Source of the DNA: a virus | Taxonomy: Duplodnaviria; Caudoviricetes | Reading direction: 5' to 3' (one strand) | IMG/VR virus record: IMGVR_UViG_3300017737_000066 | Span: 1-27,652 of that record | DNA length: 27,652 nucleotides | Part shown: positions 4,921 to 10,222 of the stretch, in pieces | How positions within the stretch are numbered: the stretch's first letter is position 1 | How the letters are laid out: the number at the start of each line of letters is the position of its first letter | Program-made: the position numbers and the translations under genes | Notes under the pieces: generated by a model | The model's input: only the letters and a program-made list of their open reading frames with translations | Databases searched by the model: none | What the model was told of the DNA's origin: nothing

Positions 4921-5493
4921 ATGCAAGTCTACACACAAATTGTACGACCCCAGGAGTTGGATGAGGATGACCTGTGGATTCCCTGTCTTAAAACAGCCAC
5001 CGTTGAACACTCATCTGCAGATGCACAATCGGGATTGATCATCACACACATTGAAGCCATCAAACACTATGCACACAGTCTTACAGAACTGTTGGAACAA
5101 AAGGTGTATGCGGTGGGATCAAAAACTTATGACCGACTCGTAGAGGCGGGCTTCGCAGAAAATAATATTCATTGGCGACACACTGCCAACGATTTAAAAC
5201 TGCGTTCCAAAAACACAGGCCCACTCACTTGGCTCCACGGAGACAAGTACGCCAGAGATTTTCGTGCCATACCTGAAGTCACAGCAATACAGACATACGA
5301 ATCAAAACCAGATCCTACAGCCATCAAACAGATATTGAAATTGGAACCAGATGTTATTCATGTGTATTCTGATTCTGTATTGAAAGAGTTGGAGATTAGG
5401 AACTGGAGTCACACCAAGTTGAAACACGTTGAGTCAGCGGAACCTGATGCCGCTTTATGGTTGGATTGTGAATCGTTTGATCCTAATGTTTAA
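4921..5493 (+). CDS. hemD: Uroporphyrinogen-III synthase (HemD)-like protein, short and divergent
   Basis: HemD-like motifs in the expected order: VRPQ, IPCLK, LIITHIEAI (cf. FTS.NAV), VYAVGSKTYDRLVEAGF (cf. AVG..TA..L...G), WLHGD, QTYES (conserved Tyr), DVIHVYSDSV (cf. F.S.S.V). 190 aa. Confidence 0.65.
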   Translation: MQVYTQIVRPQELDEDDLWIPCLKTATVEHSSADAQSGLIITHIEAIKHYAHSLTELLEQKVYAVGSKTYDRLVEAGFAENNIHWRHTANDLKLRSKNTGPLTWLHGDKYARDFRAIPEVTAIQTYESKPDPTAIKQILKLEPDVIHVYSDSVLKELEIRNWSHTKLKHVESAEPDAALWLDCESFDPNV

Positions 5494-5512
5494 GAACGAC
5501 TAGCGTCGTTCT
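5493..5512. terminator. Hairpin at the convergence of the hemD-like and minus-strand transcripts; possible terminator
   Basis: AGAACGAC-tagc-GTCGTTCT, a perfect 8-bp stem directly at the hemD stop. Only a weak T-tract (GCTTTT) follows. Confidence 0.45.
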
Positions 5513-5878
5513 GCTTTTCGCTTACGCTCAAGCATTTAAGCAATTACATAACGAAGTTATGTTGTGCATCATGCAGACAGTTGATCCATACTTCACCCAG
5601 TAACGGGAAAAGTATGAAGCCATCATGCGAGACTAGCCTGCCATTTTGTGAAAGGAACTTTTGTACGGAAGCGGTGACCCGCCAACTCCCTATTCCAGAC
5701 TTCATTAGTCACGGTCAACTGCGGCACCCTTCACAAACAAAGTGAGCAGTTGTGATGTTGTATCTTTTTCACAGAGCATCTTCTTTTGTGCCTTTAGTAA
5801 GCACTTGCCTTGCAACTCAGGATTCACCATTATTTTTCAAACGCACTTCCTGGATCTACGATCAGCGATGTTGCTATG
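5494..5878 (-). ncRNA. Candidate ~385 nt structured non-coding RNA (or structured origin region) of unknown family
   Basis: No ORF >=60 aa, GC-richer than the flanks, about 10 stems tiling the region. Two stems contain G-U pairs on the minus strand that would be A-C mismatches on plus (5788-5804; 5645-5655 with 5727-5737). Confidence 0.55.
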
Positions 5879-6310
5879 TTAAGCCTTTTTGTAGTTTTTA
5901 AGTTCTTCTTTTAGGATTCGGGAACCACCAACTCTCACATTGATAATTCCGTTGTAGTAATCATCGGTTTCTAGTACTCGCCTTTCGAATTGTTCTCGAG
6001 CCTCGAGATAACTCATTACGCCTCTACCTTTACAGATGTATAATATTTCCCTAGTAAATTTTTCTTCGCCTAATTCTGCCACGTCAGCATTCAAATGGTC
6101 TGAAGATCCCCAATAGTCCTTCCAGTCCGATTCAACTTTGCTTCTACGTTTGTTTATCCTGCCCTTGAGAGGTGGACGTGTCTTCTTGAATTTCGCCAGT
6201 TTTTTACCCACATACTTCTTACCGTTGGTTGTGTTTGTAATGAGATACACAAATCCTTCGCAGTCTTCCGGCAGTGTGTGAATGGGGTTACCCTGATAAG
6301 TCCATGGCAT
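5879..6310 (-). CDS. GIY-YIG family endonuclease (catalytic domain only)
   Basis: GFVYLITN..NGKKYVG (GIY...YIG variant), YWGSS, F.REIL, conserved Glu region YLEAREQ, terminal YYN. 143 aa with no C-terminal DNA-binding repeats. Confidence 0.85.
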   Translation of the reverse strand: MPWTYQGNPIHTLPEDCEGFVYLITNTTNGKKYVGKKLAKFKKTRPPLKGRINKRRSKVESDWKDYWGSSDHLNADVAELGEEKFTREILYICKGRGVMSYLEAREQFERRVLETDDYYNGIINVRVGGSRILKEELKNYKKA

Positions 6311-6327
6311 ATGGACATACTTACTGA

Positions 6328-6546
6328 TTATTTTTTTCGCTCTTGTTGTTTTTGGATCTTGCTCACTTTGTATTGTGCTTCAAGTTCTTTACGTCTTTGA
6401 CGTGCCAAAATTCTAATTTCCGCTAAAGCCTTTCTAGCGGCTACTTTGGTAGCGAGGCTTCGCCTCTCAGCAAACAACTCGTTTGCCTTAAAATAAGCCA
6501 TGTACGCCTTGGTCAGTTTATCGTGTGTATCATCTAGAATGGTCAT
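6328..6546 (-). CDS. Small basic helical protein, possibly a histone-H1/Hc1-like DNA-binding protein
   Basis: 72 aa, K/R/A-rich (YFKANELF...AARKALAEIRILARQRRKEL). Start overlaps the end of gp46. The family call is from memory of similar phage proteins. Confidence 0.55.
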   Translation of the reverse strand: MTILDDTHDKLTKAYMAYFKANELFAERRSLATKVAARKALAEIRILARQRRKELEAQYKVSKIQKQQERKK

Positions 6547-8314
6547 GTGTTTCTACGTCATTAGCATATGCTGTGAAGCCGTTTTCTTTAACAACCTTAA
6601 GCACATTGTTCACTCTGCCCATCAATTCATCTTTGTGGGATATTAAAAATATATTTTTGCCTGATTCTCTGCTCATTTTTTTCAAAATAGCCAAACTGCT
6701 TTCAACTCCTGCTGAATCCATACCAGAATCTATTAATTCATCCAAGAACAACAAGTTGATCTGTTGATACAAGTTTTCCCATACATCTCTAAATGCAAAA
6801 CTTAAACCTAAAATTAATCTGTTTCTTTCTCCTCTACTCAAGTTGTCAAAGTCTAGTTCTTGTCCCAGTTGAGTGATCTCCACACTTAAATCATTTTTAA
6901 ATGTGACCAAGTGTGGAAGACCCAATTGATCCAAGTAGTGAGTTAACCTGTTGTTCAAGAAGGTTAAGTTTTGATCAATTATTTTCTTTCTTATGAAAGA
7001 ATCTTTATTTGTCAACAATTTATACAAAAATTCTTGATGTTCTTTCAATTTTTGTAGTGTGTTTGCTGTGTCCCAATTTATTTCTTGTACTGCTTGATTT
7101 TTTAATTCGTCTATTTGATCTAGATATGGATTTGATTCTTCTTTTTTGTTAACAAGTGCTGTGTTGATTGATTCCACATATTGTCTGTGATCATATGCTT
7201 CTTTAAGTGTGTCATAGTATGTGTCAGGTCTTTGATCCAAATCGCCCACTGCTTTGATATCTTTTACAGTTTGTTCTAATTGTTCAGCCAATTCCATTAC
7301 ATAACTGTTGGATTCTCCATATTCTTCTTCCAAAGTTTTCTGCATTTGTTCTATTTTATCTTGAGGCAGATCCTGTCCACAAGCATAACAAGAAGTTTCG
7401 CTATTAAGTTTTTCTAAATCATCATGCAATTTTTTTGCTGTCTTATCTGCTTGTTCAATAGTTGATTCCAAACCGGCTCTGTCTTTTTGCAATTGTCTTA
7501 ACGCATCATTAAGTTTTGTCCAATCTTCAAGTTTTTGATGTGTTTCTAATTCTTTATCAATGTCTACGCCTTCTAACTCTTTCAAGTTTTTTTCTAATTT
7601 TTCTATATCTGTTCTGTTTTGATTTTGCCAAGCACTGCTTTTGTTGTTTAAACTGTGAATTGTTTCTTCTACTTTTTCATTGCTAATTTTTAAACCTTCT
7701 AATCTTGCTGTTTCTAGTGCTATATCTTCTTTTGAACGTTTGATGTGTGTTTTTAAGATGTCTGCTTTCTCAGACAACAATTGAATTCCTAACAGTTGTT
7801 CAATTATTTCTTGTTGTTCATTGTTGTGTAAACTTAAAAAGGGTTGAGTGTATGTGTTCAAAGCCACAATGTGTTTAAACATTTTTGGATTCATTCCAAT
7901 CATTCTGTTCAGGTCTTCTTGTGTTTTACGTGAATCTCCTTGACTGACATCTGATAGTTCTTGTTCTTGGTCGTCAATGTAATACTTCATTACATTTGGT
8001 TTTCTGCCACGTTCTACTCTATAATTTACACCATCTTTTTCAAATGCTATTGTGACCAACATTGCTTTGCTGTTGGTTTTATTCACTAGATTGTCTTTAC
8101 GTATTTTTGTAAGTGCTTCGCCATACAATGCGTAACACAATGCATTAACTATGGTTGTTTTACCTGTACCATTACGTGAACCTGCGTCATCGCCACCCAT
8201 GTCTAAGTTTTCACCCAACACCAGTGTTAATAATTTTTGTTGAAAGTCTATTGCTTGGGTTTGATTACCCACACTCATAAAGTTTTTTACAGTAATTGTT
8301 TTAATCAGTATCAT
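6530..8314 (-). CDS. gp46: Recombination endonuclease ATPase subunit (T4 gp46 / SbcC / Rad50-like)
   Basis: Walker A GSRNGTGKTT, coiled coil with CYAC zinc hook, signature LSRGE, Walker B LFLDE-LIDSGMD, H-loop LISH. Confidence 0.95.
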   Translation of the reverse strand: MILIKTITVKNFMSVGNQTQAIDFQQKLLTLVLGENLDMGGDDAGSRNGTGKTTIVNALCYALYGEALTKIRKDNLVNKTNSKAMLVTIAFEKDGVNYRVERGRKPNVMKYYIDDQEQELSDVSQGDSRKTQEDLNRMIGMNPKMFKHIVALNTYTQPFLSLHNNEQQEIIEQLLGIQLLSEKADILKTHIKRSKEDIALETARLEGLKISNEKVEETIHSLNNKSSAWQNQNRTDIEKLEKNLKELEGVDIDKELETHQKLEDWTKLNDALRQLQKDRAGLESTIEQADKTAKKLHDDLEKLNSETSCYACGQDLPQDKIEQMQKTLEEEYGESNSYVMELAEQLEQTVKDIKAVGDLDQRPDTYYDTLKEAYDHRQYVESINTALVNKKEESNPYLDQIDELKNQAVQEINWDTANTLQKLKEHQEFLYKLLTNKDSFIRKKIIDQNLTFLNNRLTHYLDQLGLPHLVTFKNDLSVEITQLGQELDFDNLSRGERNRLILGLSFAFRDVWENLYQQINLLFLDELIDSGMDSAGVESSLAILKKMSRESGKNIFLISHKDELMGRVNNVLKVVKENGFTAYANDVETHDHSR

Positions 8315-9320
8315 TGTTTAAATCTCTAAATATTCTAAGCAAGACAGATTTATCATATGCATCAGACTCAATTGTTTCAATTTCTTTAGAAACAATTTGA
8401 TCTACACTTTCAAATTTTGTAATATCAAGTTCTGTGTTAATTTCTTCTTCTTGTTTGCTTGGGATTAGTGTTATTTCTCTACAATTATATTCTTTCATAA
8501 AAGTTTCTTTAATATAACTGGCTTCTTCAAAACTGATGTCTATATCCAATGTAACTCTTAGATGCATTTTCTTTTTCATGATCTCTTTGGTTTTGTCCAA
8601 CAGTGTGCTTAATTTTACATTTCTGTACTTGGGACAATTATCCCAATTGAAATAAACAGGCTCTGTGCCATGTTCTAATATCATCATACCACGTTCATCG
8701 TCATCAACATCTGCATAATTGTGTGGAAAAGGATTGCCTAAATAATGAATATTATTTTTGACCTGTCTTTTATGAAAGTGTCCTGAGAAAACGTATTCTT
8801 GTTTTTTAAAATCACTTGGTCGTAATTCTCCTGTGTCAGGCATTTCTACCATTGCATTCATAAAGAAGTTGGGTAATTCAAAATGACCAAACATATATTT
8901 GCATTCCATATTACCAACTTTTTTCCATTCATTGCCTACTAACCAAGGCACTAATATAGTGTCATCTATTTTTGTAATTTTATTAACCATAGTGATGCCG
9001 GGAATAAATCTGCCAAATTCTACAGATTGAATATCTCTACTGTCTTTGTAATATAAATCGTGATTGCCTGGAAAGAAATAAAATTTATCAAATGCTTTTC
9101 CTAATTTTTCTAAACATCTAATAGAAGCATCCATAGTGGTTATGTTTACACTATTCCTGTTGTGATGCCAATCGCCACAAAACAATCCTGTTTCACAGCC
9201 ATGTTTCTTTGCTAGTTCGATATACCAATCAACGAATTCTTCACAGTCATCGTTGTGTAATTTAGAATTGGATTTTAATCCGAAATGAATGTCGGTAAAA
9301 ACTGCTAATTTCTTGAACAA
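8301..9320 (-). CDS. gp47: Recombination endonuclease nuclease subunit (T4 gp47 / SbcD / Mre11-like)
   Basis: Metallophosphoesterase motifs TDIHFG, GDWHH, GNHD, GHF, SGHFH. TTG start with AGGAG SD. Adjacent to gp46. Confidence 0.95.
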   Translation of the reverse strand: MFKKLAVFTDIHFGLKSNSKLHNDDCEEFVDWYIELAKKHGCETGLFCGDWHHNRNSVNITTMDASIRCLEKLGKAFDKFYFFPGNHDLYYKDSRDIQSVEFGRFIPGITMVNKITKIDDTILVPWLVGNEWKKVGNMECKYMFGHFELPNFFMNAMVEMPDTGELRPSDFKKQEYVFSGHFHKRQVKNNIHYLGNPFPHNYADVDDDERGMMILEHGTEPVYFNWDNCPKYRNVKLSTLLDKTKEIMKKKMHLRVTLDIDISFEEASYIKETFMKEYNCREITLIPSKQEEEINTELDITKFESVDQIVSKEIETIESDAYDKSVLLRIFRDLNNDTD

Positions 9321-9341
9321 AATAATCTCCTACTTTTCTTT

Positions 9342-9370
9342 AGAATACACGAAAGTGTTGTATTTGTCAA
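9342..9370 (-). promoter_or_regulatory. Sigma70-type promoter for gp47-gp46
   Basis: Minus strand TTGACA (9370-9365), 17 nt, TATTCT (9347-9342), then AGGAG and the TTG start. Confidence 0.8.
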
Positions 9371-10222
9371 CTACTTTTTCGTTCGTTTACTGACTTTAGG
9401 TTTTGGATTCGATTTGTTTGCAGTCTTTGGTGCACCTGAATCGCCTTGAGTCTGTCGTGACATACTAGGCATCATATTGTTAAGTTCCAGAATATCATCT
9501 CTAATATTTTGATTACGTTTTTCAATATTGATAATTCTTACAAACGAATTAGTAACTGCCGCTGTGTAATAAGCAAATGGATTATCTGATTTAGATTCAT
9601 CAAATTGTAAACCAATTTGAGCCAATTGCAATATGGCTTGTCCTTGCATCTCATCATTGTATGTGTAACCTCTCACGTTACCTCTTGTTCCATAACGTTC
9701 ACACAGTTTCATCCACATTTTTGCCAGTTCATTTGTGGCTCTGCCTGATTCTTTATTGAATTTGCCGTTTTCTAAACCACCTTCCCAGTGACTTTTTCCC
9801 ACACAAATTAAATTGCCTTTTCTGTCATATTTCCAATGTTGGAATGGTGGAAAGTTTACCTTGGTTTTACCATCTGCCACTGTTTTTGGATTCTTTTTTC
9901 TACCAGGTTCATCTGGCACGTGATCAAATGTCATCACCCTAAAAACTACATCATCCTTGTCAATCTTTCTATAATCTATTTGGCATTCTCCCAATTTAGT
10001 TTTAGGATCTAATTTTTTACGTCTTTCGTAGTCTTGATGTGTTAATTTTTTGGCTTTATTTCTCTTGGCTTGAGCAACAGTTCTAATGTTTATTGCATCC
10101 ACGTTTTTCACAATCAAGTTGTATTCGCTGTATGCTTCGTCTATAAAACTGCAAAATGATGCCTTAGACTTATGAATTTCGGATAATAGGTCTCTGTTGT
10201 TTAGATAATTGACTTTTTTCAT
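9371..10222 (-). CDS. gp55: Late-transcription sigma factor (T4 gp55-like) with a large insertion
   Basis: NYLNNRDLL N-terminus; RGYTYNDEMQGQAILQL...FDESKSDNPFAYYTAAVTNSFVRIINIEKR. Lies upstream of gp47-gp46, as in T4-like phages. Confidence 0.9.
   Translation of the reverse strand: MKKVNYLNNRDLLSEIHKSKASFCSFIDEAYSEYNLIVKNVDAINIRTVAQAKRNKAKKLTHQDYERRKKLDPKTKLGECQIDYRKIDKDDVVFRVMTFDHVPDEPGRKKNPKTVADGKTKVNFPPFQHWKYDRKGNLICVGKSHWEGGLENGKFNKESGRATNELAKMWMKLCERYGTRGNVRGYTYNDEMQGQAILQLAQIGLQFDESKSDNPFAYYTAAVTNSFVRIINIEKRNQNIRDDILELNNMMPSMSRQTQGDSGAPKTANKSNPKPKVSKRTKK

Follow-up and report, generated by a model that had tools for sequence, protein, structure and literature searches.

The DNA analysed here (the window, 27,652 nucleotides) is a fragment of a large T4-like phage with portal and baseplate genes, gp46, gp47 and a late sigma factor, and directly behind its GIY-YIG nuclease gene the minus strand encodes a covarying, strand-specific, doubly pseudoknotted structure of RNA type that is real, widespread and largely undescribed. 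We propose, with a probability that we put at roughly 0.55, that this element is the primer half of an initiator-free replication origin, which would work in the manner of ColE1 RNA II without being a member of the ColE1 family. A sequence-only reading of the same region had mainly favoured an RNA cofactor or guide of the nuclease, and had named a primer or R-loop RNA at a replication origin as its alternative; among the readings weighed here, it is that alternative which fits best.

A covarying RNA fold on the minus strand

The stems that the sequence-only reading had drawn on the minus strand are borne by complementary arms at those very positions, and most of them are recovered by folding. 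Against 100 shuffled controls the minus strand folds better than chance, with z = -2.66 (1 of 100 shuffles as good), and the plus strand gives z = -1.94. The RNA begins with a 5' domain (5788-5874, minus strand) that consists of a junction, 5874-5812, and a hairpin, 5804-5788; its pairing starts at 5874, next to the nuclease stop codon at 5879-5881. This domain is sub-type dependent, and in alignment A1 the junction 5812-5874 varies between sub-types. In many homologues (L116, L122, L126, L060 and others) A/C-rich leaders with several GGCA repeats stand ahead of the RNA, the repeats being possible protein-binding sites.

Next comes a covarying stem (5754-5781, minus strand) that closes a conserved loop, 5777-5757, and leads to the core (5645-5752, minus strand). 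The core holds pseudoknot 1, in which 5737-5727 pairs with 5655-5645, and pseudoknot 2, in which 5712-5708 pairs with 5678-5674, together with the helices 5690-5686/5671-5667 and 5698-5692/5659-5654. A last RNA hairpin (5587-5616, minus strand), with a GNRA loop in many homologues, completes the body of the RNA, whose loops are of the RNA-style GNRA type.

Support for this fold comes from alignment A2, which covers the core (window positions 5558-5784) in 68 distinct homologues; these were retained from 102 rows once near-duplicates, rows with long insertions and 12 type-A rows in which the repeat calls were doubtful or the inserts large had been dropped. The named structure of 37 pairs has 86.4% paired cells, as compared with 64.7% in shuffles and 38-50% in slid controls, and a covariation of 0.55 versus 0.205 in shuffles (0 of 500 as high), figures that lean towards the structure because it was derived from the same alignment. 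G-U cells exceed A-C cells by 279 to 56, from which it follows that one strand folds, and the earlier observation that G-U pairs favour the minus strand is thereby upheld. Covariation among relatives is strong, and it includes the 11-bp pseudoknot that had been proposed from the window (our pseudoknot 1) as well as the second one, pseudoknot 2, which is the best-covarying helix of all (97.6% paired). A GCGG/CCGC stem that had been proposed at 5671-5682 does have both its arms, but it is only half conserved, and its loop forms pseudoknot 2. Mutual information in A2 picks out the two pseudoknots, the loop stem around 5777-5757 and helix 5690-5686/5671-5667; RNAalifold recovers just 10 pairs from this alignment because it is divergent. 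A model built on A2 (R1) gives scores of 47-136 bits on loci outside its training set, and 23 bits on the 3' half of type B, one of the sequence types of the element.

Relation to Rfam families

Neither Rfam nor ARAGORN gives a match in the window, be it to a group I intron, RNase P, tmRNA or a known ribozyme, and likenesses to group I introns, RNase P, C/D-box RNAs and K-turns that were noted by eye are not conserved across sub-types. For RF01712 (gathering cut-off 40 bits) the window has no match to E 10, and for RF01718 (cut-off 37 bits) it has no match. The earlier statement that the RNA is undescribed and belongs to no known family thus holds for the window itself, but not for the family as a whole, since distant homologues pass two Rfam fragment models.

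The first of these is RF01712, Methylobacterium-1: in the 22 homologous loci scanned, L555 is the sole homologue above the cut-off of 40, at 49.9 bits, and L539 and L577 stand at 31 bits. The matches cover the conserved-loop stem and the pseudoknot-1 stem, and end at the 5' arm of pseudoknot 2; the stem at 5754-5781 and the one that follows it are the counterparts of P2-P3 of Methylobacterium-1 in distant homologues. The arrangement that marks this motif, P2-P3 stems with a pseudoknot and then CCG, is present, and the same elements covary in A2; moreover, R1 links the window type and L555 at 76 bits. The second is RF01718, Polynucleobacter-1, which matches the 5' domain of L049 at 59.4 bits (cut-off 37), with an adjoining core that scores 73 bits with R1. 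Methylobacterium-1 is described as a probable non-cis-regulatory RNA of Methylobacterium and marine DNA, and Polynucleobacter-1 is listed as possibly cis-regulatory, in the passages of Weinberg et al. (2010, PMC2864571) drawn on here. The two motifs appear to be fragments of a larger family, of which the window is a distant relative and not a scoring member. Within the portions of the literature that we drew on there is no account of the full element, of its twin repeats or of any role as an origin; fragments of it may be present in the alignments of Fremin et al. 2023 (PMC10690425), and the motif notes of Weinberg et al. 2010 may comment on its context.

Twin repeats and a tail of DNA-type hairpins

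The last hairpin of the RNA is flanked by two identical direct repeats of 7 nt, X1 (5622-5628, minus strand), which follows CUC, and X2 (5568-5574, minus strand), which follows UCU; X1 would be a self-guide, and the template strand of X2 its target. A repeat finder returns 199 identical pairs in 209 elements (ten mis-calls dropped), with 37 forms of the 7-mer. Because such a finder selects for repeats, the comparison was repeated with the anchors only, taking the best first anchor where several existed: among 219 distinct elements both anchors are found in 181 and lacking in 38, and the anchored elements show 7/7 identity in 167 of 181 and 6/7 in 10 more. Identity over 6 nt between X1 and X2 holds in 45 of 46 cases within variant classes, as opposed to 2.5% across classes. 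Sub-type E and several chromosomal copies have repeats that are shorter or do not match fully.

Variable 7-mers of the kind that a guide would carry exist; a search for an outside target, which covered the element's 11 own contigs, gave no pattern. No complement of X recurs consistently within the element or its 1.5 kb flanks, and the sole complement that is always present is the element's own template strand. The 7-mer is not depleted in the window or in ten contigs, and no inverted, tandem or palindromic target layout recurs in the 11 contigs (a GTTCGA cluster in G002 is probably due to tRNA T-loops); on these two grounds, both judged within the window and those contigs, a guide against host DNA was set aside as unlikely.

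Past X2 lies a tail of mini-hairpins of DNA type (5493-5562), namely 5562-5546, which has a GAA triloop on the plus strand, 5529-5519, and 5511-5494, which doubles as a terminator-like site for the plus-strand gene. The sequence-only reading had counted the terminal hairpins as parts of the RNA; being of DNA type, they probably lie outside the folded RNA. Across 167 distinct tails, the 150 nt past X2 contain 100 sense and 76 antisense hairpins with a C-GNA-G triloop, 176 in all, where dinucleotide shuffles yield a mean of 1.95; none occurs in RNA bodies or coding controls, and 46 of 68 non-redundant tails have such a hairpin. As set out in the parts of PMC13037366 used here, DNA mini-hairpins of this high stability are formed by GNA triloops alone, and for one of them the matching RNA hairpin is much less stable. 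The same source places these DNA hairpins at the priming sites of G4 and RSF1010 and in N4 promoters. With an RNA-like body closed by GNRA loops and a DNA-like tail closed by GNA loops, the element is therefore bipartite. A HemD-like gene (4921-5493, plus strand; Pfam HEM4, E 1.5e-4, below the cut-off), shared by the closest relatives only, converges on the element.

Distribution in phages and integrated elements

Most large-phage relatives carry the element between the block of gp46, gp47 and the late sigma factor, which in the window lies upstream of it (6530-10222, minus strand), and the baseplate-hub gene, and all 10 of the long phage contigs examined have one copy each. In the small phages L123 and L149 it immediately precedes genes for a terminase small subunit or a ParB-like protein. 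The window's gp46 has its nearest isolates in Phosso, PA5oct and Atu_ph07, at 44-48% identity. There is no significant R1 match in PA5oct, Atu_ph07, Phosso, Vibrio phage 2.275.O or Melnitz, and blastn of the RNA against phage isolates gives no match; the syntenic gap of PA5oct holds a loop-like variant that scores merely 9.3 bits with R1, and none of the four annotated ncRNAs of this phage lies in that gap. Long, hairpin-rich and poorly coding gaps adjoin a Holliday junction resolvase gene in PA5oct (L327:7017-8531) and in Phosso (L329:7410-8425), the latter gap being of 1 kb and followed by RNase HI; both gaps are possible diverged homologues in cultured phages.

Several further features of these contigs were recorded. 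Genes that resemble SufE and serine hydroxymethyltransferase (called from sequence only) lie between gp46 and the nuclease gene in L029 and L036-L042; 12 of the 80 contigs L001-L080 break off within the element, less than 450 nt past the nuclease gene, a possible sign of assembly breaks or of mosaic strains at this place; and L533 (PBLX01000043.1), a phage contig with the GIY-YIG gene, the RNA and the baseplate hub, has been binned into a bacterial MAG. Over the whole window AGCT (4 versus 133), GGCC (8 versus 74) and GCWGC (0 versus 26) are strongly depleted, as are CATG and TGCA, which suggests avoidance of host restriction sites.

The element also occurs in bacterial chromosomes. In GTDB genomes, 14 of 120 motif matches were judged true homologues on inspection, and R1 confirms the RNA in 9 of 9 bacterial genomes picked by motif match (47-76 bits). 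Of ten copies retrieved, 7 are enclosed by direct repeats at a distance of 5-15 kb, and in four of the 7 the repeats are tRNA ends; because several copies are related, the ten amount to fewer than 10 independent cases. The 65 proteins of six integrated elements include tyrosine integrases, serine resolvases, ribbon-helix-helix proteins and cargo, and none of the 65 belongs to a Rep, primase or helicase family, although 40 of them have no Pfam family, so that a cryptic Rep is possible. No GIY-YIG gene is found in the integrated elements. TAAATA, which we take to be a T4-type late promoter, stands 112-189 nt upstream of the core in 8 of the 10 integrated copies; ATAAATA has three occurrences only in the window, each just ahead of a structural gene. 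The small integrated elements L598-L607, with integrase, resolvase, ribbon-helix-helix gene and cargo, are candidate new satellites; one of them, L600 of Methylophilales LSUCC0135, measures 5.2 kb. A protein without Pfam family that has a similar N-terminal stretch is encoded in three of them (L599:10685-11314, L601:12127-12807 and L602:10886-11629) and is a candidate for a cryptic Rep.

A proposed origin opened by template capture

In ColE1, RNA II base-pairs through one of its upstream segments with the template strand farther downstream. Pairing of an upstream stretch of RNA with a downstream template needs direct repeats such as X1 and X2, and it is for this reason that we propose template capture. 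From the observed fold, repeats, tail and distribution we infer each step of the function. The RNA would be transcribed by read-through in the window, where no promoter-like site is found between 5300 and 6700; in some relatives transcription would start from a promoter of sigma-70-like or late type. The RNA would fold while being made. X1, presented by the folded core, would base-pair with the X2 template strand while the polymerase opens X2; if X1 captures the template in this way, the repeats must be identical, yet are free to drift together. A persistent RNA-DNA hybrid could then grow across the tail and form an R-loop at a single-strand initiation site; the loading of primase or helicase would fall to the mini-hairpins there, and synthesis would start from the end of the RNA. 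As satellites, the small integrated elements would rely on this same origin, which the late sigma factor of a helper phage would switch on.

In the portions of the ColE1 literature that we cite, the origin opens by a persistent RNA-DNA hybrid without a plasmid initiator, and the displaced strand is where the helicase is loaded (PMC5043065); from the RNA II hybrid, RNase H produces a primer (PMC5043065, PMC11012335); and the trigger of the persistent hybrid is termed speculative (PMC5043065). No Rfam similarity to RNA I or RNA II is found in the window or in 22 homologous loci, and three queries of 72,556 plasmids returned no homologue. Strand skew in 11 contigs follows gene direction and gives no origin signal, and no RNase H (PF00075) is found in five long contigs, all of them incomplete. 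Eight RNA-library runs out of 23, which as contigs only cannot show a discrete transcript, give scattered, low-depth coverage of coding and non-coding sequence alike; a primer RNA may be rare in such libraries.

An RNA that acts in trans, as an RNP scaffold, a dual-guide RNA or a ribozyme, appears unlikely. Its repeats would bind a dimeric protein or an outside target, and its tail would consist of terminators or single-strand promoters, in keeping with the ornate fold, the two pseudoknots and the conserved loop, with the one tail hairpin that scores as a terminator, with the use of GNA hairpins as N4 promoters as well (reported in the part of PMC13037366 cited above), and with a sigma-70-like promoter within 300 nt in 8 of 101 type-A loci. 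However, no abundant, discrete contig appears in the eight RNA-library runs, X is neither avoided nor palindromic in its own contigs, and 37 forms of X that change in step fit base pairing more easily than protein recognition. Nor do five long contigs encode a reverse transcriptase; a reverse transcriptase template was likewise discarded, with no RVT_1 in 5 of 5 contigs (incomplete).

A signal for packaging or genome maturation, be it a pac-like site or a cofactor akin to prohead RNA, that satellites copied for packaging by the helper, we hold to be more doubtful again. Resolvases act in the packaging of branched DNA, an established role of T4 endonuclease VII, and both the location of the element in L123 and L149 and the late-type promoter of the integrated elements would suit such a signal. 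In large phages, however, the element lies between gp46 and the baseplate hub, away from terminase; it is common to phages of very different size; and the twin repeats are left unexplained. The terminal repeat of PA5oct, moreover, is far from the syntenic gap, as given in the section of PMC7318152 used here.

Returning to the origin, we would generalise the proposal only tentatively, and at odds well short of even. The element may represent a new class of self-targeting origin RNAs, in which a scaffold with a reprogrammable 7-nt self-guide would capture the template at an identical downstream repeat and open an R-loop over a mini-hairpin priming site. In an abundant lineage of large T4-like phages, such an RNA would be the origin that has so far gone unrecognised. 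It would have no sequence relationship to ColE1, and Rep-less satellites would pirate it via the late promoter of the helper, with interchangeable resolvases that process the branched intermediate. Few large phages have a known origin, and hundreds of natural variants with paired 7-mer change make the trigger of the hybrid testable by paired mutations. If true, the proposal would also supply a function and a full-length structure for two orphan Rfam motifs and define a class of Rep-less satellites.

The neighbouring nuclease

The gene next to the element (5879-6310, minus strand) encodes a SegE-type GIY-YIG nuclease of 143 aa, assigned to PF19835 (124.6 bits versus a cut-off of 25) and to PHROG447, whose annotation as 'NAD synthetase' is a misnomer. 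Its structure model has a pLDDT of 94 and shows the basic insert as a beta-hairpin; in a Foldseek comparison, catalytic domains of I-TevI rank first (probability 0.97, E 0.09), and the invariant residues of the protein are Tyr, Gly, Glu103 and Asn120. Stand-alone GIY-YIG domains are known, and the absence of a DNA-binding domain is not unusual in itself. The GIY-YIG family also includes T4 endonuclease II and Slx1, the latter an example of junction processing by such a domain.

A search that started from the protein gave 80 viral loci, 68 of which extend at least 450 nt past the stop codon; the element is found in 66 of these 68, in several sequence types, and the two loci without it (L076, L080) have another gene context. 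Searches with RNA motifs gave a GIY-YIG gene in all 71 type-B loci that have 1 kb of upstream sequence and in 52 of 76 type-A loci, the other 24 having none within 1.5 kb, a linkage that is inflated because both motifs were taken from gene-linked loci. Gene and RNA are inverted together in six loci, and in L086 and L162 the gene is turned opposite to the RNA.

In type-A loci without GIY-YIG, its place between gp46 and the baseplate hub is taken by a RusA-like resolvase (PHROG244), by endonuclease VII or by unrelated genes. When the search started from the RusA-like protein, type-A RNA was found in 16 of 75 loci with enough flank and sub-type E RNA, called by eye and with one motif, in 58 of 80; type E RNA (L401-L468, downstream of the RusA-like gene) has a similar 5' domain, a different core and the same 3' layout. 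PHROG244 is absent from three long GIY-YIG contigs, as is GIY-YIG from the RusA contig G003; all of these contigs are incomplete. GIY-YIG homologues of cyanophages, rhizobiophages and phage Melnitz, in six annotated records, have a downstream gap of less than 150 nt and hence no room for such an RNA.

These findings make it improbable that the RNA is a guide or cofactor of the GIY-YIG nuclease. The idea draws on the near-complete linkage in the protein-first and type-B loci, on the joint inversions and on the basic beta-hairpin in the model. Yet the linkage that had been looked for, sound as it is in the protein-first loci, fails in the 24 type-A loci and in the integrated elements, the RNA occurs with unrelated nucleases (PHROG244, endonuclease VII) or none, homologous proteins occur without room for it, and the origin of the search motifs flatters the association; the obligate linkage to one effector family that characterises RNA-guided systems is not found. 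The exchange of GIY-YIG with PHROG244 and endonuclease VII in the gene slot instead suggests that the window protein is likely a junction-resolving nuclease, and the simplest reading of these sequence data is that it is one of three interchangeable junction-processing nucleases. At the proposed origin, it would serve the replication and recombination locus in that capacity and would not be guided by the RNA, which suggests a role for the very common, misannotated phage nuclease family PHROG447.

Comparison with known systems

The nuclease shares the fold of its catalytic domain with I-TevI, but, unlike that homing GIY-YIG enzyme, has no homing DNA-binding domain. As to the RNA, the 103-nt model of Methylobacterium-1 spans roughly one third of the element, without pseudoknot 2, twin repeats or tail, and the 5' domain of the window is another fold than Polynucleobacter-1, which it does not match.

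OMEGA/HEARO, TIGR-Tas and bridge RNAs likewise combine a structured RNA by a nuclease gene with short variable segments that flank a hairpin. The element differs from them in that it has no fixed protein partner and in that its two variable segments are identical and match its own DNA. The G4 origin, RSF1010 ssiA and the N4 promoters, so far as the source cited above describes them, have C-GNA-G DNA hairpins as does the tail of the element, whose hairpins, in contrast to those sites, cluster on both strands behind a folded RNA.

With ColE1 RNA II the element would share a long folded RNA, the absence of an initiator, a persistent hybrid and downstream loading of a helicase, and probably also a small accessory gene and a multimer resolvase nearby. 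It differs from ColE1 in that it resides in phages and integrated elements and not in the plasmids searched, and in that it carries variable 7-nt twin repeats.
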